From assembly GCA_015059495.1 (NCBI GenBank), contig SVAI01000001.1:735811-799810 (forward strand): a DNA stretch of 64,000 nt, read 5' to 3'. The DNA is from Bacillota bacterium (GTDB lineage: Bacteria; Bacillota_I; Bacilli_A; RF39; UBA660). Position 1 is the first letter of the stretch. Each line of letters opens with the position of its first letter. A program made the translations under genes and the position numbers. The notes beneath the pieces were generated by a model. The model saw only the letters and a program-made list of their open reading frames with translations. It made no database searches and was not told the DNA's origin. This document shows, one piece after another, positions 36,506 through 55,895 of this stretch.

Positions 36506-37390
36506 TTATATATCATCATCTCCAATATAATCACTTAATACATCTGCTAATACTTTAATACTATTACTTACTTCTAATATATTATTATCTACTCCACCTA
36601 TTTCTACTACTATAAGATTATGAGAAAAGTCTTGATTGTATACCCCATTTACTCCTAAACCTTCTTTTTTTAATACTCCCTTTGATATTCCATTAACCTT
36701 CTTATTTAACATATCACTTAATTCATTAGATAACTTTAAATTATATTCATATGATTCATTTTCTAATCCAACTATAAACATTATCTTAGCATATACCTTA
36801 TCACTATTTAATGTAGTCATATCATAACTAGATGAATCTCTATGTATATCTATATAGTATTCATAAGTATTATTTTTTTCTAATAATATCCTACTAGCAT
36901 TATATGAATCTTTATATATCCAATTATTATCATCTAATATCTTTTTAATACTATTTAATTCTACATAAGATTCTATATTATTATTTTTTAAATATTCCTG
37001 TAATACATATGATGCTATTTTAACATTAGGTATAACTGAATATTCACTACTATAATCTAATTTATATTCTTCACTATCATGTGTATTATAAATATATATT
37101 AAACTCTTATTAAATCTTTTATTAACTTTATCTACATAACTAATAAAACTCTTATTATCACTTTTAATATTTTTATCTAATAATAAAGATACATTTAATA
37201 TATTATCTACATTATTAACTTTATAGTTTAATCCTTCATTTACTAAATAATTAATATACTTACTTGGATCTACTTCATTATCCAATATATTTAATGTTAT
37301 TTTAAAGAATACATACATAAAAATAATAAATAATATAAGTTTTAATAACTTATGTTTTCTTCTAGATTTAAACCTTTTCATAATAATCAC
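36506..37390 (-). CDS. spoIIP: stage II sporulation protein P (SpoIIP)-family protein
   Basis: Signal anchor, IYIYNTHDSEEY, IDIHRDSSS and GVYNQDFSHNLIVVEIGG. These match SpoIIP family signature blocks. Confidence 0.65.
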   Translation of the reverse strand: MIIMKRFKSRRKHKLLKLILFIIFMYVFFKITLNILDNEVDPSKYINYLVNEGLNYKVNNVDNILNVSLLLDKNIKSDNKSFISYVDKVNKRFNKSLIYIYNTHDSEEYKLDYSSEYSVIPNVKIASYVLQEYLKNNNIESYVELNSIKKILDDNNWIYKDSYNASRILLEKNNTYEYYIDIHRDSSSYDMTTLNSDKVYAKIMFIVGLENESYEYNLKLSNELSDMLNKKVNGISKGVLKKEGLGVNGVYNQDFSHNLIVVEIGGVDNNILEVSNSIKVLADVLSDYIGDDDI

Positions 37391-38762: not shown

Positions 38763-40961
38763 TTAATTTGTTTTTAAAGTGAAGTATCCTGGATTACCAT
38801 TTGTAGGATCATCAACACGAGCATATTCTTTGTCAGTATGAGATGAATCATATGTTGTACCTGCTCCACCTTTGATATTTATAGATTTTAGAAACATATT
38901 AGTGCTACTTGTAACTGCCGAAGTATTAAAATTGTTGCCAACATACAACGTTGTTAATGCACTCATTCCATTAAACATTGATAACATATTTGTTACATTT
39001 GAAGTATTAAAATTACTTATGTCCAAACTTGTTATACCTTTCGTTCCAGAAAACATTGCGGACATATTTGTTACATTTGAGGTATCAAGATTACTTACAT
39101 TTAAGTTAGTTAGACTACTCATTCCGGAAAACATTGCAGACATATTTGTTACTTTTGAGGTATTAAGATTACTTACATTTAAATTAGTTAAACTTCTCAT
39201 TCCATAAAACATATCTGACATATTCGTTACATTTGAGGTATTAAAACTACTTATATCAAAGCTAGTCAAACTATTCAATCCATAAAACATATAAGACATA
39301 TTTGTTACATTTGAAGTATTAAAATTACGCAAATCTAAACTTGTTAAATTATTCATTCCATTAAACATTGATGACATATCAGTTACATTTGAAGTATTAA
39401 AATTATGCAAATCTAAACTTGTTAAATTATTCATTCCACTAAACATACTGTTCATATTTTCTACATTTGAAGTATCAAAATTTCTTATATCTAAATTTGT
39501 TAGACCACTCATTAAAGAAAACATACTAGACATATTTGTTACATTTGATGTATTAAAACTACTTATATCTAAATTTGTTAGACTACTCATTTTATAAAAC
39601 ATAAAAGCCATACTTGTAACTTTTGAAGTATCAAAATTACTTATATCAAGTACTGTTAAATTGTTCATATTACTAAACATACTATTCATGCCTGTTACAT
39701 TTGAGGTATCAAAACTACTTAAATCTAACGTTGTTAATGCACTCATTGTAGAAAACATATATGACATAGTTGTTACTTTTGAAGTATCAAAATTTCTTAC
39801 ATCTAAAATTGATAAGCTTTGTAAATTGTCAAACATTGACACCATATTTGTAACTTTTGAGGTATTAAAAGTGCTTACATCTAAATCTGTTAGACTATAC
39901 ATTGCATGAAACATACTGTACATATTTTCTACATTTGAAGTATCAAAATTACTTATATCTAGTACTGTTAAATTGACCAATCCATCAAACATACTACCCA
40001 TATTCGTTACTTTTGAGGTATCAAAATTACTTACATCTAAAGTTGTTAATGCACCCATGCTAGAAAACATTTTAGACATGTCAGTTACTTTTGAAGTATT
40101 AAAGATATTTAAGTCTAGGTTTGTTAAACCCAGCATATGGTAAAACATATATGATGAATCACTATTCATATAAATAGTATCCGCTTCACTATAAAGATAT
40201 ACAGTTCCATTATCAAACCACGCATATACAAGAATAGGTTCATTAAAATCAGAAACTATAACCTTATCAGCACCTTCTGGTGGTGGATTCAAACTTCTCA
40301 CGATAGCTTTTATTGACGTATTTCTATCACTATATGACGCATAAGTACTACCAGTTGATTTTTTAAGATACTGGTTAAAATATTTACCATTTTTTAATAT
40401 TACTTCCTTATAATTCTTTTTTAATGTTGATCTAACTGTTATTTTAGAACTTAAAGTTTTACTTAATACTTCATCATTGTCAGCATCTTCTTTAATCCAT
40501 AATCTTAAGTTATATGATTTAGAGTCCCCTGCTGCTATAGTATCTTCATAGAACTTAGCAGCACTAGATGCATTAGATAACGTGGGTTCAACACTATTAT
40601 TATCGCCATATGTATGAATATGTCCATTAACATCTACTCTTAAATTTTCACCAGCAATTTGACTATCATTTAAAGTTTCCAAATTTATTGATATATCTGC
40701 TGCATGTTCACATATATTTGTTAAAGTAAATTTATATGGAGTTGTATATACACCCTTACCATCTTTCATTGGAAATGAATTAGTTAAACTAATAGCTTGA
40801 CTTCCCTCAGTAAAAGTTATTTCAAAACAATCTGATACTACTACATTTGTACTCTCTTGTGATACATTAAATACCCATAATGCATAAGAAGAACTTAGCA
40901 TTAAAGATAATACTAATAAAATACCAATAACTAATAATGTAATTTTATGTTTCTTCTTCAT
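38763..40961 (-). CDS. DUF285 (PF03382)-repeat surface protein, paralogue A
   Basis: N-terminal signal/TM, then about 17 tandem ~25-aa repeats of the form LTxLDISNFDTSNVTNMSSMFxGM, and a C-terminus GGAGTTYDSSHTDKEYARVDDPTNGNPGYFTLKTN. Confidence 0.75.
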   Translation of the reverse strand: MKKKHKITLLVIGILLVLSLMLSSSYALWVFNVSQESTNVVVSDCFEITFTEGSQAISLTNSFPMKDGKGVYTTPYKFTLTNICEHAADISINLETLNDSQIAGENLRVDVNGHIHTYGDNNSVEPTLSNASSAAKFYEDTIAAGDSKSYNLRLWIKEDADNDEVLSKTLSSKITVRSTLKKNYKEVILKNGKYFNQYLKKSTGSTYASYSDRNTSIKAIVRSLNPPPEGADKVIVSDFNEPILVYAWFDNGTVYLYSEADTIYMNSDSSYMFYHMLGLTNLDLNIFNTSKVTDMSKMFSSMGALTTLDVSNFDTSKVTNMGSMFDGLVNLTVLDISNFDTSNVENMYSMFHAMYSLTDLDVSTFNTSKVTNMVSMFDNLQSLSILDVRNFDTSKVTTMSYMFSTMSALTTLDLSSFDTSNVTGMNSMFSNMNNLTVLDISNFDTSKVTSMAFMFYKMSSLTNLDISSFNTSNVTNMSSMFSLMSGLTNLDIRNFDTSNVENMNSMFSGMNNLTSLDLHNFNTSNVTDMSSMFNGMNNLTSLDLRNFNTSNVTNMSYMFYGLNSLTSFDISSFNTSNVTNMSDMFYGMRSLTNLNVSNLNTSKVTNMSAMFSGMSSLTNLNVSNLDTSNVTNMSAMFSGTKGITSLDISNFNTSNVTNMLSMFNGMSALTTLYVGNNFNTSAVTSSTNMFLKSINIKGGAGTTYDSSHTDKEYARVDDPTNGNPGYFTLKTN

Positions 40962-41931: not shown

Positions 41932-42723
41932 CTATCTTTTCTTAATTGGGTATCCCCCATCTAACAATAAAAACTGATCATGACTACTAGATAATTCACT
42001 ATCTAAAAAAGCCTTAACTTGTGCATCAGTAGTTCCATTTTTATATACATCAGTTACATCAATTACCATAACATTATCAATATTAATATTTAATTCAGAA
42101 AAGTTAGTATCATTATCAACACCAGTCTTCATATTACTAACATTAAATCCTAAATATTGACTATCACTATTAACATTAACAGTTAATATTTCACTATACA
42201 AATTCCAACTAGAATATTCACCACATAAACGATTCTCTGCTTTTAATGTATAAGTTATAGAACCTATTTTTAAATATGGTTGATCATTAGTACAATTAAT
42301 TGTATAGTTTCTAAATACATTATATCTAACATATATTTTACTTGAAGTAGCTCTTTTCTTTAATAATCTAGAACTATTAATAGTTTGACCAAAAGAAGCA
42401 GCAGTTGGTTTTAGTCTTATATATGATGATCTTTGTGTTGACTCATCATTATACGCTACAGCATTTGTACCTAATGTCCACGCAGTACTATTAAATGCAC
42501 CAGTTTTAATACTATCAAAATCTCCATCTATAATAGAATTATATAAAGTAGTAAATTTACCAATAATAACATTATCATTTAAATCATTTAATACATTTTC
42601 ATTAGAACTATTAATTAAAGTTTGATATTGAGTATATGTAGCCATTATCATTAATGTCATAGTTAAAAAAATAATAAAGAAAGAAAACATTAATGAAGTT
42701 GCAATAAATCCATTCTTTTTCAT
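41932..42723 (-). CDS. hypothetical membrane-anchored protein
   Basis: 263 aa. N-terminus MKKNGFIATSLMFSFFIIFLTMTLMIM. S/T/N-rich ectodomain. It lies downstream of the bacteriocin-like peptide genes. Confidence 0.35.
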   Translation of the reverse strand: MKKNGFIATSLMFSFFIIFLTMTLMIMATYTQYQTLINSSNENVLNDLNDNVIIGKFTTLYNSIIDGDFDSIKTGAFNSTAWTLGTNAVAYNDESTQRSSYIRLKPTAASFGQTINSSRLLKKRATSSKIYVRYNVFRNYTINCTNDQPYLKIGSITYTLKAENRLCGEYSSWNLYSEILTVNVNSDSQYLGFNVSNMKTGVDNDTNFSELNINIDNVMVIDVTDVYKNGTTDAQVKAFLDSELSSSHDQFLLLDGGYPIKKR

Positions 42724-42750: not shown

Positions 42751-42782
42751 ATCATAATAATAAAAAAAGAGATAGTTAAATC
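42751..42782 (-). terminator. intrinsic terminator after the bacteriocin-like peptide genes
   Basis: Minus strand AAAAAGAGAT-ttaact-ATCTCTTTTTTT. Confidence 0.5.
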
Positions 42783-42791
42783 TCTTTTTTA

Positions 42792-42947
42792 TTAACGACA
42801 TACTTTACCACTTATAGCCATTCGAATAGATGTACCAAGACTTCTACCTAACTCTAAAGCAGTATTAACAACTCTAGCAGCAGCATTCATTAGTGTAGCA
42901 CTAAACCATCCACCACCAACAACATTAATTAGTTCTTCTTCTCTCAT
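42792..42947 (-). CDS. double-glycine-leader bacteriocin-like peptide 1 (51 aa)
   Basis: Not in the ORF track. AAGGAGG RBS. Leader MREEELINVVGG (hydrophobic at -4, -7, -12; Glu at -8). Predicted amphipathic 39-aa core GWFSATLMNAAARVVNTALELGRSLGTSIRMAISGKVCR. Confidence 0.6.
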   Translation of the reverse strand: MREEELINVVGGGWFSATLMNAAARVVNTALELGRSLGTSIRMAISGKVCR

Positions 42948-42958
42948 GATTTACCTCC

Positions 42959-43105
42959 TTATTTTCTACAACCGTATGGTCTAAAAAAGCCATCAATTAT
43001 GCCAATAACGAATGCACCACCAGTAATTAATGCACCGATTAGTCCAAGACTAATTGCACCACCTTTAACATCTTTTAATTCTTCTTTACTAAGTTCTATT
43101 TTCAT
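42959..43105 (-). CDS. double-glycine-leader bacteriocin-like peptide 2 (48 aa)
   Basis: Not in the ORF track. GGAGG RBS. Leader MKIELSKEELKDVKGG fits the LSxxELxxIxGG consensus. The 32-aa core AISLGLIGALITGGAFVIGIIDGFFRPYGCRK has GxxxG-type motifs. Its stop overlaps the RBS of peptide 1. Confidence 0.6.
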   Translation of the reverse strand: MKIELSKEELKDVKGGAISLGLIGALITGGAFVIGIIDGFFRPYGCRK

Positions 43106-43115
43106 AACATACCTC

Positions 43116-43550
43116 CTATAATAAAACATTAATTATTTTATTTATTATTAGTTCTTTATTCGAATACAAACTAACATCTATAAAAGTATTTAATATACCA
43201 TCATCTAGTTGGTCTACTTCTAAAGTTACAATTTGATAATTATTCTTAGTTAATTCATCTGAATATATATCACTAACTGTTATATTATTTATATTTTTGT
43301 TTTCTTTGTTAATTTTAATCATATCTATATTTTTATATTTATTAGTATCTAAATAATTAACAGTTAATTCTATCTTACATATATCATCACAACTAACATA
43401 TCCTTTTATTTTTTTAACATCATATATTTTAAAAATAAATAAAGATATTATGATAATACTAAAACTAATTAATATTAAATATATTAATATATTATATTTT
43501 GGTTTTAAACTTCTTAAATAACTTATATTATCAACCATTAAAACCACCAC
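43116..43550 (-). CDS. short membrane-anchored accessory protein of the bacteriocin exporter (HlyD/LcnD-like, truncated)
   Basis: 144 aa. N-terminal TM then a small beta-rich domain. It overlaps the ABC gene by 20 nt and precedes the peptide genes by 10 nt. Confidence 0.4.
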   Translation of the reverse strand: MVVLMVDNISYLRSLKPKYNILIYLILISFSIIIISLFIFKIYDVKKIKGYVSCDDICKIELTVNYLDTNKYKNIDMIKINKENKNINNITVSDIYSDELTKNNYQIVTLEVDQLDDGILNTFIDVSLYSNKELIINKIINVLL

Positions 43551-45579
43551 TTACTACTAAATCAAAATGATAACTAGGCTTAAAATGAGAAATAATAATG
43601 AAGGTTTTATTATTATAATAGTTAAAAATATTATTAATCATTTTATTAGCATCACCTTCTTCTACTGCACTAAATGTTTCATCAAAAATTATTATTGGGT
43701 TATCTTTTAATAATTCTCTTGCCATGATAATTCTAGATCTTTCTCCACCACTCAAATTAGAAACATCTTCTCTTATCATAGTATCTAATCTTAAAGACTT
43801 CTTATTTAATATATCATTAACTTCACATAATTCTAATACAGTATTTAATTTATTCTTATCAACATCCATATTTAAAGTAATATTATTAAAAATAGTATCA
43901 TTAAATATAGCTTCATCTTGAGATATATAAGAAATATTATTTCTAATAGTATCTAAACTATAATCTAATATATTAATATTATTAATTTTAATACTACCTT
44001 TAATTGGATTATATAATCTATCTAATAATTTAAATAAAGTACTCTTACCACTACCACTTTTACCCATAACTAATACTTTACTATTTTCTCTTATTTTTAA
44101 AGAATAATTCTTAATTGGATAATCATACATATTATAAGAATAATCAATATTATTAAACTCTATATCACCATTTTTAAATGACTCTTTTTTCTTATTACTT
44201 TCTTCCTCCAACATAAGAAAATCATTTATTTTAATAAAACTTCTTCTTATATATACATACTTAGGTATTAAATTAATAATATCTTTTATTGGATTAATAA
44301 AAAACATATATAAAGAATTATAAGTAATTAAATCTAATAATTCTAAAGTATTATTAATTACAAACATAAGAGCAAAACTATTTAAGATAAATAAACCTAT
44401 TTCTAATATAAAAGTATTAATAAAATTATAAATATTTATTTTATTATTAATTGAAAAGGTATTATATAAATATTCATATATTTTATTATTTAACTTACTC
44501 ATAGTAAAAGATTTATTATTCTTAACACTTATAATGTGATTTAAACTATTAGTAAGACTAGAATTAAAACTAGTCTGATAATTAATATTATCCTCAATAT
44601 AATTATTAATTGGTTTAATCCATATTAAATTATTAATTAAATAGATAAATATAACTAATAATAATATAATTGTTAATTTCACATTAATAATCATTAATAC
44701 AATTATAGATGTTATAACTAATAATAAATTTAATACTAAAGTAACAAACATATTAGCAAATAATTCTTTTAAGTTATTTAATTCATTAACTCTAGTAATT
44801 ATTTCACCACTGGTTCTATTACTTATAGCATTCAAAGGGATATTAAATATATGTTTAATAAAATCAGGTAATAAACTACAATCAATATTTTTATTAATAT
44901 AATTTTCAAAATAAGTTCTTAAATAATCTAATATTACTTTTAATAAAGTTATTATAAAGAATATTAAAATAATAAAATAAAACATACCCTTATTATTACT
45001 ATCTACATTACCAATAATTACCTTTATCATAAAAGAACTAATTATGGATACAATAGTTAGTAATAAACTAGTAATAAACATTCTTATTATTAATCTATTA
45101 TCACTTTTAATATATCTTAAAAATATATTCAATAATTTATTATCTTTAGAGTAATTAATTACATTAGATATTAAACTAAATTCAATAATAATATCTTTAT
45201 AAATACTTTTAAATTCATCATACTTTAGTTTTCTTAATCCTTTAGCAGGATCCATAACTAATATATACTTTTTAGTTATTTCATAAACTACTATATAATG
45301 CCTTAAACCATTTTTTAATTCAACGTAGGAAATAAACGGATAAACTAATTTACTCTTTATTAAATCATCAAAACTAATTCTTGTACCCCTTCCATCAAAC
45401 CCGTACCTTTTAGCTGCAGCAATTAAATTAAAAGCACTAATACCTGATGAACTAATACATGAATCTATTTTTATCTTTTCTAGTGATATATTACCACCAT
45501 AATATTTAATAATAGATAGTAAACAAGCAGCACCACAATCCTTAATATCTTGTTGTCTAACAACTACTTTTTTAAACAT
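43531..45579 (-). CDS. bacteriocin-processing ABC transporter with N-terminal C39 double-glycine peptidase domain
   Basis: N-terminus VVRQQDIKDCGAACLLSIIKYYG (C39 Cys motif). Six TM helices. NBD GKSGSGKST, LSGGERSR, Walker B-like IIIFDETFSAVE. Confidence 0.8.
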   Translation of the reverse strand: MFKKVVVRQQDIKDCGAACLLSIIKYYGGNISLEKIKIDSCISSSGISAFNLIAAAKRYGFDGRGTRISFDDLIKSKLVYPFISYVELKNGLRHYIVVYEITKKYILVMDPAKGLRKLKYDEFKSIYKDIIIEFSLISNVINYSKDNKLLNIFLRYIKSDNRLIIRMFITSLLLTIVSIISSFMIKVIIGNVDSNNKGMFYFIILIFFIITLLKVILDYLRTYFENYINKNIDCSLLPDFIKHIFNIPLNAISNRTSGEIITRVNELNNLKELFANMFVTLVLNLLLVITSIIVLMIINVKLTIILLLVIFIYLINNLIWIKPINNYIEDNINYQTSFNSSLTNSLNHIISVKNNKSFTMSKLNNKIYEYLYNTFSINNKINIYNFINTFILEIGLFILNSFALMFVINNTLELLDLITYNSLYMFFINPIKDIINLIPKYVYIRRSFIKINDFLMLEEESNKKKESFKNGDIEFNNIDYSYNMYDYPIKNYSLKIRENSKVLVMGKSGSGKSTLFKLLDRLYNPIKGSIKINNINILDYSLDTIRNNISYISQDEAIFNDTIFNNITLNMDVDKNKLNTVLELCEVNDILNKKSLRLDTMIREDVSNLSGGERSRIIMARELLKDNPIIIFDETFSAVEEGDANKMINNIFNYYNNKTFIIISHFKPSYHFDLVVSGGFNG

Positions 45580-45657: not shown

Positions 45658-46425
45658 TTACTTAAATTTTACATTTTTACTATTTTTCTTAGATGTCTTC
45701 TTTACACCTTTAGCGTCAATAACCATATTTTTAATATCATTCAATTCTTTCCTTAAATCCTTAGCTAAGTTTGGATAGTTCTTAATTAAACGATTTTGCT
45801 TAAATCTAATCTTAGCAAGTTGACTTTGATGTTTACTTTCAAACATTTGAGGTATTAATTTTAATTTATCCTTCTTTAATTCTTCAGCAACTATTAATCT
45901 TGAACGTAAGTTATAAGCAATAAATACTGACCAAACAAAATCCGCAATAACTACAATAAATAATAAAACAGATGCCATAATTAAATACTTACTACTAATA
46001 CTTAATATTATATTATCTACTACTGGATTAATAATATATAAAATAATTAATATACCAAATCCAAATAGAATAGAATTTTGTAAACATATTCTACCATTAA
46101 TACTATCTCTTCTATATGAATAATCCCACCATTTATTATTAAATATTTTTTCAAATATATAACTAGTAAAATATTCTAATATAGATGTTATTAACATACC
46201 CATAACAAATACTATTATTGGATCATCTAAATATTCTTTTAAAGTGTATATAGTTAATATAGCACCAAAGCCATAAATTGGACAAAGAGGTCCAAATAAG
46301 AAACCTCTATTAACCCATTTCTTTTGTAAGAAACTACAATATATAACTTCACTAATATATCCTATTACACTATAAATAATAAATTGAATAAAAATATAGC
46401 TTAAATTATACATAATTATCACCAA
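45658..46425 (-). CDS. polytopic membrane protein (DUF1113 / 'ABC-transporter type IV'-like)
   Basis: 255 aa, ~6 TM helices. FGPLCPIYGFG and WWDYSY motifs are reminiscent of PF06541. A possible immunity or accessory role is speculative. Confidence 0.35.
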   Translation of the reverse strand: MVIIMYNLSYIFIQFIIYSVIGYISEVIYCSFLQKKWVNRGFLFGPLCPIYGFGAILTIYTLKEYLDDPIIVFVMGMLITSILEYFTSYIFEKIFNNKWWDYSYRRDSINGRICLQNSILFGFGILIILYIINPVVDNIILSISSKYLIMASVLLFIVVIADFVWSVFIAYNLRSRLIVAEELKKDKLKLIPQMFESKHQSQLAKIRFKQNRLIKNYPNLAKDLRKELNDIKNMVIDAKGVKKTSKKNSKNVKFK

Positions 46426-47787: not shown

Positions 47788-48282
47788 GTGATATTAATGA
47801 ATAAAAAGAATCTTATATATGTATCTTTAATTAGTCTTATTTTAATACTTGGTATATATTATATAACTATACCAAATAACATGTTAGAGAATGTTGAACC
47901 AACCATATCTGAATCAATTGATAATACATCAACTGAAGAAATAAGTTCTCTTGTAGGTCTACGTGTAGAAAATGAAGAAATGGTAATTGCTAAACTAGAG
48001 GACCTTCAAAACACTATTACTGATACATCCAAATCTTCAGAAGAAAAAAACATAGCATATGAACAACTAAAAAACTTAAACCAGCTTAAAGGTAAACAAG
48101 AAGAAATTGAAAAATTAATTAAAAAAGAATTTAACTTTGATTCATTTGTTAAAATAAATGAAGATCAAATAAATATAGTTATTTCAAATAATAATCATAA
48201 TAAAGAATTAGCAAATAACATTATTAAAAAAGTACAATCTATGTTTAAAGAAAAGAAATATATAACCATTAAATTTAATTAA
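47788..48282 (+). CDS. SpoIIIAH-like protein (putative)
   Basis: N-terminal TM, coiled coil, and a C-terminal FDSFVKINEDQINIVISNNN...ANNIIKKVQSMF block resembling the SpoIIIAH/YscJ-like fold. Confidence 0.35.
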   Translation: MILMNKKNLIYVSLISLILILGIYYITIPNNMLENVEPTISESIDNTSTEEISSLVGLRVENEEMVIAKLEDLQNTITDTSKSSEEKNIAYEQLKNLNQLKGKQEEIEKLIKKEFNFDSFVKINEDQINIVISNNNHNKELANNIIKKVQSMFKEKKYITIKFN

Positions 48283-48308: not shown

Positions 48309-48509
48309 ATGAATATATTAACAATTAGAGAAAAAGAAATATTTGATTTATTAATACAAAATAACACTACTAAAGAAATATCTAAATTATTACATATTAG
48401 TGAAAAAACAACTAGAAATCATATTTCGAATGTAATACAAAAACTGGGAGTAAAATCTAGAACTCAAGCACTAGTAGAACTAATAAAACTAAAGTGTATA
48501 AAAATATAG
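48309..48509 (+). CDS. gerE: GerE/LuxR-family HTH transcription regulator
   Basis: 66 aa. LTIREKEIFDLLIQNNTTKEISKLLHISEKTTRNHISNVIQKLGVKSRTQA is a LuxR-type HTH of GerE size. Confidence 0.6.
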   Translation: MNILTIREKEIFDLLIQNNTTKEISKLLHISEKTTRNHISNVIQKLGVKSRTQALVELIKLKCIKI

Positions 48510-48554: not shown

Positions 48555-49448
48555 ATGTTAAAAAGAGCTATTAAAAAAAGAATATTAATTACTATAACTA
48601 CTCTAATAATATTATTAATAATTTATATAATACCAATAAATAAAGAATTTAATGAAACTATATCTTATAACAATAATATTAATTATATATATTTACTTAA
48701 TGATAACAAATTAATTAGAACTAGTATTATTTCAAATGAAGAAGATACTCTAAACAAAGTTAAAGAAATAATTAATAACTTAAAAGATAATAACTATAAT
48801 GATAAATTAAAATCAATAATACCTAAAGATACTAAAATAATAAATTTATCTTTAGATAATAAATTATTAAAGATTAACTTTAGTAAAGAACTATTAAATA
48901 TACCATCTAATCTAGAAGAAAAATTAATTGAATCACTTATATATTCTTTAACTGAACTAGATGAAATAGATTCAATAATGATATTTATTGAAGATAAATT
49001 ATTATTGCAATTACCTAACTCTAATAAAAAACTACCAAGTATATTAACTAGAGATTATGGTATTAATAAAATATATAATTTAACTAGTATTAATAATGTT
49101 AATAAAGTAACTATATATTATTATCAAGAATTAAATAATAACTATAATGCCGTACCAGTAACTATATTTACTAATGATAATACTGAAAAAATAGAAGTTA
49201 TTATTAAAGATTTAAAATCATCTTCTATATACCAAACTAACTTAGTATCATTTCTATCAAGTAATACTAAATTATTAGATTATGAATTAACCGAAAATAA
49301 AATAAAACTTAATTTTAATCAACCCCTATTAGACACATTTTATAATGATTCCCTACTAGAAGAAGTTAAATATGCTATATCTAATTCTATTAAAGATACT
49401 TATAATGTTAAAGATGTAATAATAACTGTTAATAATAAAGAAATATAA
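48555..49448 (+). CDS. GerM-like (GerMN-domain) membrane-anchored protein, putative
   Basis: Signal anchor and two repeated ~120-aa modules of Germane-domain size. Context next to gerE and the spoIIIAH-like gene. Confidence 0.3.
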   Translation: MLKRAIKKRILITITTLIILLIIYIIPINKEFNETISYNNNINYIYLLNDNKLIRTSIISNEEDTLNKVKEIINNLKDNNYNDKLKSIIPKDTKIINLSLDNKLLKINFSKELLNIPSNLEEKLIESLIYSLTELDEIDSIMIFIEDKLLLQLPNSNKKLPSILTRDYGINKIYNLTSINNVNKVTIYYYQELNNNYNAVPVTIFTNDNTEKIEVIIKDLKSSSIYQTNLVSFLSSNTKLLDYELTENKIKLNFNQPLLDTFYNDSLLEEVKYAISNSIKDTYNVKDVIITVNNKEI

Positions 49449-50432: not shown

Positions 50433-52397
50433 TTATGTTGTTTTTAAAGTAAATAACCCAGGTTTTCCATTATCTGGATCATCTACTCTAGCTAGCTTAG
50501 TATTTATATAACCAACACTTGATTTAGTTGTACCAGCACCACCAATTAAATTATCACATCCAGCAAATACACTGTTAAAATAATCAGCGCTTATTCTTTC
50601 AGTATCCCATTCACTAGAAACATATATAGTTTCTACAGATGTCATATCTTTAAACATATTATTAATATTACTAAGAGAAGAAGTATTAAAACTACTTAAA
50701 TCTAAAACTTTTAATGTTGAAGCACCCTCAAACATACTTGCCATACCTGTAACTTTAGATGTATTAAAACTTGTTATATTTAAAGATGTTAGTTTTACCA
50801 TATTACGAAACATCCATGACATATCTGTTACATTTGAGGTATCAAAATTAGATAAATCCAATTCTTCTAACTTAGTATCTCCGCTAAACATTACTGACAT
50901 ATAGTTTACATTTGATGTATTAAAAGAACTTAGATTTATACTTTTTAATTCATGCATATCACTAAACATACTCGTCATATTCTCAACTTTGGAAGTATCA
51001 AAATTACTCAAATCTAAGGATTGTAATGCCCATAAATTAGAAAACATATAAGACATATTTGTTACATTTGATGTATTAAAATTACTTATATCTAAATATG
51101 TTAACGAGCCTAAATCATCAAACATATTACTCATATTTTCAACCTTAGAAGTATCAAAATTACTTAAATCTAAGGATTGTAATGTCCATAAATGAGAAAA
51201 CATATTTGACATATCAATAACATTAGATGTATCAAAACTACTTAAATCTAAATAAACCAATTCAGTATTATTATCTCCCTTATCAAACATCCATGACATA
51301 TCAGTAACTTTTGAGGTATCAAAGTTAGATAAATCTAATCTTTCAATACTACATAGATACGAAAACATATGAGACATGTTTTCTACATTGGAAGTATCAA
51401 AGGAACTAATATTAAGATTAATAAGACCCTGATCTTCATTAAACATACTACTCATATCAGTTACATTAGACGTATCAAAATTAGATAAGTCCAATGTCTC
51501 TAAATGAATCATACCATAAAACATACTAGACATATCAGTAACTATAGATGAATCAAATCTAGACACATCAATTTCACTAAGATTGTAAAGAGATGAAAAC
51601 ATATGTGACGAATCTTCGTTTAAAAATATTTTAGGACTATCACTATAAATATAAATAATACCATTTTCAAACCACATCAAAACGTCACTTTTTGAATCAG
51701 CAGTAGAAACTACAACATAAGTATCATTAGAAGGAGCTTCTTGAGAAAATAATACTTTTTCAACATTACCATTATTTCCAGATAATTCATATATTTTATC
51801 ATTAATATACTGACCATCCATAAGTTTAGCACCAACTTCTACTCGCTTTAATCTAGAAATTACAACTACTTTTGAATAAAACTCCTTATCAGCACTTTGC
51901 TCAACTGTAGAATTTTCATCAATGTATAATCTTAAATCAAAGCTTTTTGAAGTATTACCTTTTAAAGAACCTGACTTGATATTTTTTGATGATATTGCAT
52001 TATTATTTATTATAGAACTATTATCATTATTTTCTATATCCCCTAAATTAAACGGAGCAAACTGATTAATTTTTACTTTAACAGCACTTAAATCAATAGT
52101 ACTACCATCTAAAGTTTCAAGATTAACATCATAGTCTATATCATAATTACACACATTACTAATAGTAAAAGTATATGGATCTAATTCTCTTGCATCTTTA
52201 TCACTTAAAGGTATAGTGTTTGTTAAGTTAATCGCATTACCATCACTAAAAGTTATTTCAAAGCAGTCAGTTCTAACAACATTACTACCACTCTGTGACA
52301 CGTTAAAAATATAATATGCATAAGATATACCTATTAATATACTAGTAACTAAAAAGATACCTATTACACATAATAGTATTTTACTCTTCTTACTCAT
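50433..52397 (-). CDS. DUF285 (PF03382)-repeat surface protein, paralogue B
   Basis: N-terminal signal/TM (homologous to the N-terminus of paralogue A), about 13 LDLSNFDTSNVTDMSxMF repeats, and a C-terminus GGAGTTKSSVGYINTKLARVDDPDNGKPGLFTLKTT. Confidence 0.75.
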   Translation of the reverse strand: MSKKSKILLCVIGIFLVTSILIGISYAYYIFNVSQSGSNVVRTDCFEITFSDGNAINLTNTIPLSDKDARELDPYTFTISNVCNYDIDYDVNLETLDGSTIDLSAVKVKINQFAPFNLGDIENNDNSSIINNNAISSKNIKSGSLKGNTSKSFDLRLYIDENSTVEQSADKEFYSKVVVISRLKRVEVGAKLMDGQYINDKIYELSGNNGNVEKVLFSQEAPSNDTYVVVSTADSKSDVLMWFENGIIYIYSDSPKIFLNEDSSHMFSSLYNLSEIDVSRFDSSIVTDMSSMFYGMIHLETLDLSNFDTSNVTDMSSMFNEDQGLINLNISSFDTSNVENMSHMFSYLCSIERLDLSNFDTSKVTDMSWMFDKGDNNTELVYLDLSSFDTSNVIDMSNMFSHLWTLQSLDLSNFDTSKVENMSNMFDDLGSLTYLDISNFNTSNVTNMSYMFSNLWALQSLDLSNFDTSKVENMTSMFSDMHELKSINLSSFNTSNVNYMSVMFSGDTKLEELDLSNFDTSNVTDMSWMFRNMVKLTSLNITSFNTSKVTGMASMFEGASTLKVLDLSSFNTSSLSNINNMFKDMTSVETIYVSSEWDTERISADYFNSVFAGCDNLIGGAGTTKSSVGYINTKLARVDDPDNGKPGLFTLKTT

Positions 52398-54882: not shown

Positions 54883-55638
54883 TTATAAAATAGTACTCTT
54901 TCTAGCTAATAATCTATCATTATCAAAAGCTTGTAAACCATATACAAAAGTTCTATCTAAATATATACTCTTAGCAATCTTTTCTATTTCTTCATCACTA
55001 AACTTATATGATGATGCATTAGCAACACTATATAATGAGAATTCTCCATTAAGTAAATATATTAATTTAAAATTAATATTATATATACCAAAAGATACTT
55101 CAACATAATTTAACTTAGTAATATCATTACTATCAAATCTAACAGATATAACTACATCATTATTTAAATTTAAATTACTAAACTTATCAACAATAACATT
55201 ATATCTATTTAATAAATCTTGATACTTCTTTCCTACATTTAAATATTCAATAACTATAGATGGATCAATATTCATATTAATTCTATTTTCAATATCACTA
55301 ATACTTTCTTTAATTAATTTAATATTATTATTTAAAATTATAAAATATAATAATGATTCTTCATTAATATATCTTAATGATTTAAAATATGGTGTTTCAT
55401 AATAAGTAGATAATCTATAATTATCTAATACACTTAAAGGAGTTAATTCTTTATAATCTCTAATAAATGATTGATATAAACTATTAAATTCTTTAATATA
55501 ATCTAATAAATTAATACAATTATTATAACTAATATCTACTAAAGAAGAATCAAATCCTGAATATAATATATCATCTATTTTTTCTATACTTCTAGTAGAT
55601 ACTAAATTAATACTTCTTTCATATTCTTTTGCATTCAT
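54883..55638 (-). CDS. hypothetical protein
   Basis: The ORF track extends this to 55854 across two tRNA genes. I start at ATG 55638 (MNAKEYERS...), which has a GGGGTGAT RBS. Confidence 0.4.
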   Translation of the reverse strand: MNAKEYERSINLVSTRSIEKIDDILYSGFDSSLVDISYNNCINLLDYIKEFNSLYQSFIRDYKELTPLSVLDNYRLSTYYETPYFKSLRYINEESLLYFIILNNNIKLIKESISDIENRINMNIDPSIVIEYLNVGKKYQDLLNRYNVIVDKFSNLNLNNDVVISVRFDSNDITKLNYVEVSFGIYNINFKLIYLLNGEFSLYSVANASSYKFSDEEIEKIAKSIYLDRTFVYGLQAFDNDRLLARKSTIL

Positions 55639-55731
55639 AACCATCACCCCAAAAAACAAATATATATTAACATAATAATTATTAATAGACAATAAAAAAA
55701 AGTATCTATAAGATACTTCAATAAACAAAAA

Positions 55732-55806
55732 TGGTGCCGGAGGAAGGAATTGCACCCCAACCTGCTGCATACAATGCAGCTGCTCTAGAAATTGAGCTAC
55801 TCCGGC
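55732..55806 (-). tRNA. tRNA-Thr(UGU)-like gene lacking G18G19 and with GUGC in place of TΨC
   Basis: GCCGGAG-TA-GCTC-AATTTCTA-GAGC-A-GCTGC-ATTGTAT-GCAGC-AGGTT-GGGGTGCAATTCCTTCC-TCCGGC-ACCA. Acceptor, D and anticodon stems are perfect. Anticodon UGU. The D-loop has no GG. The T-arm reads GGGG-UGCAAUU-CCUUCC. Confidence 0.5.
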
Positions 55807-55819
55807 ATAAATAAAAAAA

Positions 55820-55895
55820 TGGTGGACCCTTAGGGATTCGAACCCTAGACCCACTGATTAAGAGTCAGTTGCTCTACCAACTGAGCTAAGGGTCC
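55820..55895 (-). tRNA. tRNA-Lys(CUU)
   Basis: GGACCCT-TA-GCTC-AGTTGGTA-GAGC-A-ACTGA-CTCTTAA-TCAGT-GGGTC-TAGGG-TTCGAAT-CCCTA-AGGGTCC-ACCA. Canonical cloverleaf, encoded CCA. A TGgTATAAT extended -10 lies upstream (55908..55916, minus strand). Confidence 0.85.

Follow-up and report, generated by a model that had tools for sequence, protein, structure and literature searches.

We analyzed a 64-kb stretch of contig SVAI01000001.1 from a Bacillota metagenome-assembled genome (MAG), the whole of which is referred to here as the window, and in which four tightly packed minus-strand genes encode, in this order, an ATP-binding cassette (ABC) exporter, a short accessory protein and two small peptides, beta and alpha. 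The four open reading frames (ORFs) lie at the coordinates and on the strand given by the original prediction, which was made from the letters of the window and proposed an unannotated operon for a two-peptide, double-glycine bacteriocin. The features of the operon are as follows.

43531–45579, minus strand: ABC exporter gene, 682 residues, with Pfam domains
43116–43538, minus strand: accessory gene, 140 residues counted from its ATG
42959–43105, minus strand: peptide beta gene, 48 residues, leader MKIELSKEELKDVKGG followed by the core AISLG...GCRK
42959–43129, minus strand: beta gene with the start deposited in GenBank, 56 residues (MFYYRRYVMKIEL...), beginning inside the accessory gene and without a ribosome-binding site (RBS)
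42792–42947, minus strand: peptide alpha gene, 51 residues, leader MREEELINVVGG followed by the core GWFS...KVCR
about 42762–42790, minus strand: AT-rich terminator-like hairpin (AAAAAGAGAU / AUCUCUUUUU) with a U-run, directly 3' of the alpha stop codon, from RNA folding

The accessory ATG overlaps the exporter stop codon by 8 nt (ATGGTTGA), which is the sole overlap in the operon; the two peptide genes had been thought to overlap translationally, but gaps of 10–11 nt separate accessory from beta and beta from alpha, and the RBS of each peptide gene sits over the preceding stop codon. Both of these sites are strong, as proposed, with GGAGG located 6–7 nt 5' of the ATG. The predicted intrinsic terminator is present as a hairpin with a U-run (ΔG −15 kcal/mol, z −5.1; 0 of 200 shuffles fold equally well), and is retained nearly base for base in one of the related loci described below (L001), but it is AT-rich and fails the G+C rule of a consensus terminator scan, which found no sites. 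A consensus promoter scan gave 38 sites against 35 expected, in DNA of only 20–25% G+C (20% for the operon region versus 25% for the window). No further small ORF with a double-glycine leader was found in a six-frame scan of the whole window, and the one extra regular-expression match to such a leader lies inside the ABC gene.

The description of the operon as unannotated holds for alpha and not for beta. In the GenBank record of the MAG (locus tags E7159_) beta is MBE6158917.1, named "class IIb bacteriocin, lactobin A/cerein 7B family", whereas alpha is skipped, the accessions and locus tags of its neighbours following each other without a gap; elsewhere it is labelled "hypothetical protein". 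The deposited 56-residue start of beta is probably too early, and we favour the 48-residue start because its GGAGG and its 16-residue leader fit the orthologues, whose leaders have 13–16 residues.

A Pfam search finds Peptidase_C39 (E 1.2e-32) at the N-terminus of the ABC protein, in agreement with the C39-peptidase exporter proposed originally, followed by a six-helix membrane domain (ABC_membrane, 4.7e-23) and an ATPase (ABC_tran, 3e-27). The nearest solved structures are those of PCAT1 (4ry2, E 6.5e-93) and ComA (8hf4, E 2e-78), both of which align with the exporter from end to end. Alignment with these two proteins identifies the oxyanion residue Q10, the catalytic C15 (within DCGAAC), H94 (RHY) and D110 (DP), and the ATPase carries Walker A at 506, the signature motif at 609 and Walker B at 629. 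Because the catalytic and ATPase motifs are all present, we predict an active peptidase and not a degenerate C39-like domain. Two NCBIfam models align over their full length with scores below their cut-offs (NF045998, 363.8 versus 500 bits; TIGR01193, 359.1 versus 523.85), and by sequence the exporter is a member of the same superfamily with the same architecture, positioned outside those subfamilies in a divergent lineage of peptidase-containing ABC transporters (PCATs).

The accessory protein is indeed very short, as had been noted, although it has 140 residues when read from its ATG, as in public gene calls, and the GTG start that would give 144 is unneeded. An AlphaFold2 model built on 11 homologues (predicted local distance difference test, pLDDT, 79.6) has a membrane helix at residues 13–35, about 95 beta-rich residues that form an extracytoplasmic domain (37–130) and a short C-terminal helix. 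The protein matches no Pfam family, HlyD included, and the model has no long alpha-helical hairpin; of the anchor, beta-barrel, lipoyl domain and hairpin that make up a full membrane fusion protein of the HlyD type, there is space for the anchor and the beta-rich domain only. On this model, we read the protein as a membrane-fusion-protein-like adaptor reduced to a minimum, with the anchor and a barrel-like domain retained from the HlyD/LcnD type, which would account for its small size. Against NCBIfam NF045999 (MAG1140_fam, cut-off 35) the window protein scores 10.8–11.2 bits; five of 11 close homologues match this model, and the orthologue at locus L007 aligns over its full length at 29 bits (E 9.8e-7), still below threshold. 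These scores indicate remote homology to the MAG1140 family, as judged from sequence, and not membership in it. Several related loci do without any accessory gene, so the protein is not indispensable.

The two peptides and their related loci

Both peptides have the double-glycine leaders that were predicted, and both leaders fit the consensus LSxxELxxIxGG. Beta has a 16-residue leader (LSKEELKDVKGG) and a very hydrophobic, Gly-rich core of 32 residues; alpha has a 12-residue leader (EELINVVGG) and a cationic, amphipathic core of 39 residues. The cores thus correspond to the hydrophobic or amphipathic peptides expected, with beta uniformly hydrophobic and alpha amphipathic. A GxxxG motif had been noted in one core, which we now find in beta; it is not confined to beta, and alpha contains one too.

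The alpha core is characterised by an invariant module, L(E/D)LGRSLGT(S/A)IRR, in which the GxxxG motif appears as G-RSL-G. The window peptide has a hydrophobic moment of up to 0.65 and a net charge of about +3.8, within a family range of about +3 to +6, and its AlphaFold2 model is a single continuous helix from residue 17 to 46 (core pLDDT 94–96). The beta core ends in the module (F/I)LIG(V/I)IDG(F/Y)xRP(L/Y)xC, with GxxxG in the form G-(V/I)ID-G. Across the family, beta cores are 30–32 residues long and almost uncharged, with a grand average of hydropathy of 0.8–1.5 and repeats of the small-xxx-small type; the window peptide combines a mean hydrophobicity of about 0.8 with a low hydrophobic moment, as expected of a helix that spans the membrane.

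Word-indexed homologue searches with alpha and beta returned only 5 and 2 close relatives. A profile search of 1.84 billion representative sequences, built on a 5-sequence alignment of alpha, recovered at least 233 representative clusters (50% identity) at E ≤ 1e-3, nearly all of them peptides of about 50 residues with a double-glycine leader and the pattern G..(L/V)G(S/T).IRR......C. Among 128 alpha homologues scanned, there is no dedicated Pfam or NCBIfam family and none carries a functional name; the most frequent model is TIGR03949, at E ≤ 0.01 in only 16 of the 128. The leader and family models proposed as a check on the two peptides gave a divided answer: beta passes TIGR03949 (lactobin A/cerein 7B) with 24.0 bits against a cut-off of 21.5, and falls below the thresholds of Pfam PF10439 (Bacteriocin_IIc, 18.1 versus 27.1 bits) and TIGR01847, whereas alpha matches neither a leader model nor Bacteriocin_IIc. 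For alpha, the supporting evidence is comparative and does not derive from hidden Markov models (HMMs).

For this comparison we scanned one genome per GTDB species with a pattern derived from the alpha alignment, which yielded 23 loci (designated here by L numbers), every one in a MAG whose title names Bacilli, Tenericutes or a similar group. In 21 of the 23, the genes run ABC, (accessory), beta, alpha; the order is incomplete in L016, truncated by the start of its contig, and in L005, in which beta is disrupted while alpha and gamma, a third small gene described below, are retained. The order of transporter, accessory, beta and alpha that had been pointed out as atypical is a shared property of these loci. 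Two of them contain additional genes.

L012:4840–5913: amidase gene of 357 residues inserted between beta and alpha (Pfam Amidase_2, E 2.5e-13)
L016:370–2022: gene after alpha for a 550-residue protein with a long Gly/Ala-rich C-terminal half, which may be another secreted factor

Codon differences between the window and L001 are 12 synonymous and 1 non-synonymous for alpha, and 5 synonymous and 1 non-synonymous for beta, compared with synonymous to non-synonymous ratios of 14:11 for the accessory gene and 19:9 for the tail of the ABC gene. Purifying selection acts on both peptide ORFs, and both are coding. Mean pairwise identities, determined over the same loci, are listed below.

Alpha core: 60.9%
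Beta core: 60.2%
Ribosomal protein S21: 61.5%
YqeY: 57.5%
Leaders: 46–51%
ABC exporter: 41.6%

The chromosomal surroundings of the loci are also recurrent. Genes for S21 and/or YqeY lie downstream in 15 loci, with YqfD, VanZ, YbeY and Era further downstream in some, and YlbD-YlbE-RsmD lie upstream in six. The setting in the clade of the window is different, with a PF06541 gene upstream and a gene for a 263-residue protein and miaA downstream. Among the scanned neighbour families common to many loci (YlbD, YlbE, RsmD, S21, YqeY, YqfD, VanZ, YbeY and Era) there is no modification enzyme and no two-component regulator.

Paired cysteines, an insertion site in beta, and the gamma genes

The single C-terminal Cys noted in each core recurs in every homologue examined, apart from beta copies interrupted by a mobile element. 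All 20 alpha cores and all 18 intact beta cores of the species set contain exactly one Cys, 0–4 residues from the end (two residues from the end in the window alpha), and in both peptides it stands at a fixed distance from GxxxG. In the 128-sequence alpha alignment the only invariant positions are G38, the second Gly of GxxxG, and C50. A single near-terminal Cys is a family-wide rule, and not an accident of the window genome.

A disulfide between alpha and beta, as suggested originally, is a tentative proposal and somewhat doubtful; the alternative is a functionally required free thiol, of the kind described for lactococcin B. The disulfide is sterically plausible, because positive-inside logic would place the tails of beta, alpha and gamma on the outer face of the membrane, where the three Cys residues could meet. 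No published intermolecular disulfide in class IIb turned up in a literature search, and to our knowledge the characterised class IIb peptides have either no Cys or an intramolecular pair.

Three beta variants end in ...IDGQIKLK, without a Cys, and were considered as natural Cys-less peptides, which would have spoken against a functional Cys. We rejected this explanation, as the variants arise where a contig stops at the left-hand junction of an inserted mobile element; in the one that was read (L024, 868–1016) the sequence departs from beta immediately 3' of the IDG codons, and the contig stops about 30 nt later. Corresponding right-hand arrangements are seen at two other loci. In L031 (791–2500), which comes from another sample of the same species as L024, a gene for a 558-residue large serine recombinase ends 30 nt before the beta tail GFFRPYGCRR, and alpha is intact after the interrupted beta. 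In L005 (644–1053), from a different species, the beta tail GYVRPLKCR is joined at that same codon to the C-terminus of a recombinase that is 65% identical. From these junction sequences, the conserved IGVIDG-coding stretch appears to be an integration (attachment) site for a family of serine-integrase elements. In window coordinates it is located as follows.

Equivalent of about 42980–42990, minus strand: insertion site in beta, between the D-G and F codons, in some strains of the species of the window

No obvious small immunity gene had been recognised in the window, and we identified none. In 14 of the 23 loci, a leaderless ORF of 52–60 residues, which we call gamma, directly follows alpha and, in the loci examined, overlaps its stop codon; the window, L001, L023 and seven other loci are without it.

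L002:6147–6323, L010:6147–6326, L006:6144–6305 and 11 other loci: gamma genes, absent from the window

Gamma has a Lys-rich N-terminus, one membrane helix and the tail G.Y(V/I)GT.IR....C, which aligns to the C-terminal 25 columns of alpha (hhalign probability 83%, E 9e-6); when a gamma HMM is used for searching, the next matches after the gammas are all alphas. Its position, size and topology fit those of a class II immunity protein, for which it is a likely candidate. Because gamma shares the tail module of alpha, its sequence further suggests that it could be a membrane-tethered decoy for beta.

Two larger membrane proteins had been put forward for an immunity function, and nothing ties either of them to it. 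The 255-residue and 263-residue proteins are syntenic neighbours in the clade of the window, also in L004, where a divergent gamma is present as well, and the 263-residue gene lies beyond the operon terminator. The 263-residue protein (window 41932–42723, minus strand) belongs to no family; its N-terminus (MKKNGFIATSLMFSFFIIF...) resembles a prepilin or minor-pilin signal, with a weak match to ComGE (E 0.11). It follows alpha only in the clade of the window, in L001, L023 and, as a truncated copy, L004. The gene upstream of the exporter (45658–46425, minus strand) encodes a 255-residue multi-pass membrane protein with a strong match to PF06541 (ABC_trans_CmpB, E 1.4e-49), a family listed in one paper as a candidate (predicted) queuosine-precursor transporter (PMC11130926); a literature search on this family yielded nothing of relevance to the operon.

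A putative two-peptide bacteriocin system and its alternatives

We consider it probable that the operon makes and exports a two-peptide bacteriocin system resembling class IIb. This reading, which was that of the original prediction, is favoured by the intact C39 exporter, the score of beta above the TIGR03949 cut-off, the conservation of the pair and of its order, and the invariant GxxxG. The operon has the adjacent, presumably co-transcribed pair of genes for peptides with double-glycine leaders, the C39 exporter, a GxxxG motif in both peptides and the lack of modification enzymes by which class IIb is recognised; a further hallmark, a cognate immunity gene adjoining the peptide genes, was not found in the window. 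We infer killing activity and two-peptide synergy from this likeness.

The mechanism that we envisage begins with translation of alpha and beta, both shown to be coding, as precursors whose double-glycine leaders would, by their sequence, act as export signals. The C39 domain would cut after the double glycine and the transporter expel the cores, by homology to PCAT1 and ComA and given the intact catalytic residues, and the membrane-anchored 140-residue accessory protein may dock on the exporter and assist release, as its fold similarity suggests. Outside the cell, beta (neutral, Gly-rich and membrane-spanning) would pair through GxxxG in the target membrane with alpha (a cationic, amphipathic and interfacial helix of 30 residues), and by analogy with lactococcin G and the plantaricins the pair would permeabilise that membrane, probably after binding a conserved membrane protein. 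The near-terminal Cys of each peptide would then be on the outer face of the membrane, either in an alpha-beta disulfide or as a free thiol. In 14 related species gamma may act as the tethered decoy for beta, and the genome of the window would either have lost gamma or never had one.

Several observations weigh against the bacteriocin reading. Alpha matches no Pfam or NCBIfam family and no bacteriocin or leader HMM, with 12 residues its leader is among the shorter ones of PCAT substrates, and the TIGR03949 score of beta is marginal and owed largely to the leader and the Gly-rich stretch. A literature search on the peptide motifs gave nothing relevant. The cores evolve as slowly as S21, and more slowly than their own leaders and exporter, which is unusual for bacteriocins, and the stable housekeeping setting looks more like that of a vertically kept core function than like a patchy bacteriocin island. 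In the window, alpha is followed by no small membrane ORF, gamma-like or otherwise, and the gamma HMM finds nothing there; the producers are gut and rumen anaerobes, from habitats that do not favour disulfide formation.

Some of these observations would be accounted for if the peptides formed an exported complex with a cell-intrinsic or kin-directed role, such as an envelope or sporulation membrane complex or self-recognition, in which they stay in or return to the membrane of the producer and gamma is a third subunit. Such a role would be compatible with cores whose conservation equals that of S21 and YqeY and exceeds that of exporter and leaders, with the position of the locus at the same housekeeping-cluster junction in many species, with a beta that is nearly uncharged and extremely hydrophobic, and with the window and nine other loci having neither gamma nor an evident immunity gene; gamma, which shares the tail of alpha, could be a paralogous subunit. 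However, the double-glycine leaders, the dedicated PCAT, the amphipathic/hydrophobic GxxxG pair and a small membrane protein downstream are together the standard signature of class IIb, no known housekeeping system has PCAT-exported peptide pairs, and the locus is dispensable, since in natural genomes a mobile element interrupts it or the accessory gene is absent. We regard a non-antagonistic role as unlikely, and retain it mainly because the cores are slow-evolving in a stable chromosomal position.

The same exporter could instead serve two independent one-peptide bacteriocins, or a bacteriocin and an enhancer, with no obligate heterodimer. Many PCAT loci do export several unrelated double-glycine peptides, NCBIfam family names are no proof of two-peptide action, and L005 keeps alpha and gamma even though its beta is disrupted; yet the pair co-occurs in the same order in every related locus with an intact beta (with the amidase gene between them in L012), both peptides retain one GxxxG and one Cys at fixed spacing, and no locus in the sample has an intact beta without alpha, all of which makes independent action quite improbable. 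It would be more surprising still if one or both peptides were secreted pheromones like ComC or BlpC. PCAT-exported peptides with double-glycine leaders do include pheromones, and a few alpha homologues weakly match the ComC, EntF-induction-factor and VP1 models, but each of these models is matched by only 1–2 of the 128 homologues and beta is membrane-spanning, unlike diffusible pheromones. Moreover, there is no histidine kinase or response regulator among the scanned conserved neighbour families, and the only regulator among the scanned flanking genes of the window is a small GerE-type protein, encoded on the opposite strand and beyond three other genes.

The separate elements of the two-peptide bacteriocin reading might also be combined: a heterodimeric toxin, Cys-Cys-linked or thiol-dependent; immunity conferred by gamma as a tethered copy of the interaction module of alpha; vertical inheritance, at rates like those of ribosomal proteins, through a lineage of uncultured small-genome gut Bacilli; and an attachment site in beta that makes the toxin switchable by integration and excision of an element. 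That all of these hold together is unlikely.

Known systems, the host and the meaning of the operon

The resemblance to class IIb systems such as lactococcin G, plantaricin EF/JK and ABP-118/salivaricin P includes two adjacent genes with double-glycine leaders and cores of 25–40 residues, one amphipathic and cationic peptide together with one hydrophobic and Gly-rich peptide, GxxxG in both, a dedicated C39-ABC exporter with an accessory gene and, in relatives of the operon, a small membrane protein directly downstream. There are also differences, in that alpha has no detectable relationship to any modelled bacteriocin family, each core has one invariant near-terminal Cys, the peptide genes are located downstream and not upstream of the transporter, the accessory protein has 140 residues versus about 450, and the cores are conserved across species at the level of a ribosomal protein; the operon described here is known from sequence. 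Lactococcin B also has a single Cys, but it is a one-peptide system without sequence similarity to these peptides. It was reportedly described by Venema et al. in 1993 as a "thiol-activated" bacteriocin, for which the redox state of the single Cys matters.

Similarity to PCAT1 of Clostridium thermocellum and ComA of Streptococcus extends over the full length of the exporter, with C39 catalytic and ATPase motifs kept. The accessory protein differs from LcnD, ComB, MacA, AcrA, BesA and EmrA of the HlyD/membrane fusion group in lacking the long hairpin and consisting of an anchor and beta-rich domain only. The best NCBIfam model for the exporter is that of Mycoplasma Mbov_0121 (NF045998), and the accessory family has full-length, sub-threshold matches to MAG1140 (NF045999); the two genes are presumably neighbours in Mycoplasma. 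A literature search on Mbov_0121 and MAG1140 found no published function. Scores below the cut-offs set the operon apart from this pair, as does its host, which appears from its genes to be a walled bacterium with sporulation genes.

A wall-less mollicute using genetic code 4 was considered as the host and rejected: long ORFs are read through in code 11 with TGA as a stop codon, and sporulation and peptidoglycan-binding genes are nearby. The window contains genes for SpoIIP (36506–37390), a SpoIIIAH-like protein (47788–48282), the GerE-type regulator (48309–48509) and a GerM-like (Germane) protein (48555–49448), and peptidoglycan-binding genes also flank the operon. The genome that carries these sporulation genes is small, at about 1.25 Mb, and related loci carry YqfD and YlbD; the lineage of small-genome gut Bacilli appears to keep its sporulation machinery.

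Three other features of the window were recorded. Two large leucine-rich surface proteins with DUF285/PARCEL repeats are encoded on the minus strand at 38763–40961 and 50433–52397; such repeats are typical of Mycoplasma and Listeria lipoproteins, yet this genome has sporulation genes. A 323-residue ORF with a GTG start (54883–55854, minus strand) overlaps the genes for tRNA-Thr and tRNA-Lys, which have the same orientation (55732–55895), and because of this overlap its true start must be further downstream.

Two-peptide bacteriocins of the class IIb type with a PCAT exporter are already known as a kind of system. What is new is an alpha family without an existing model, the invariant Cys in each peptide, the minimal adaptor, a gamma in relatives that mimics alpha, and the strong conservation. 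The 140-residue adaptor, related to an uncharacterised Mycoplasma family, would reveal the portion of a membrane fusion protein that peptide export in Gram-positive bacteria really requires, and the paired invariant cysteines and gamma offer ideas on how two-peptide bacteriocins may be assembled and how producers may protect themselves. Given how slowly the cores evolve, one may ask whether their target or their function lies outside classical competition. If active, the peptides would represent a bacteriocin family of uncultured small-genome gut and rumen Bacilli, whose alpha partner, in at least 233 clusters, is invisible to Pfam and NCBIfam.

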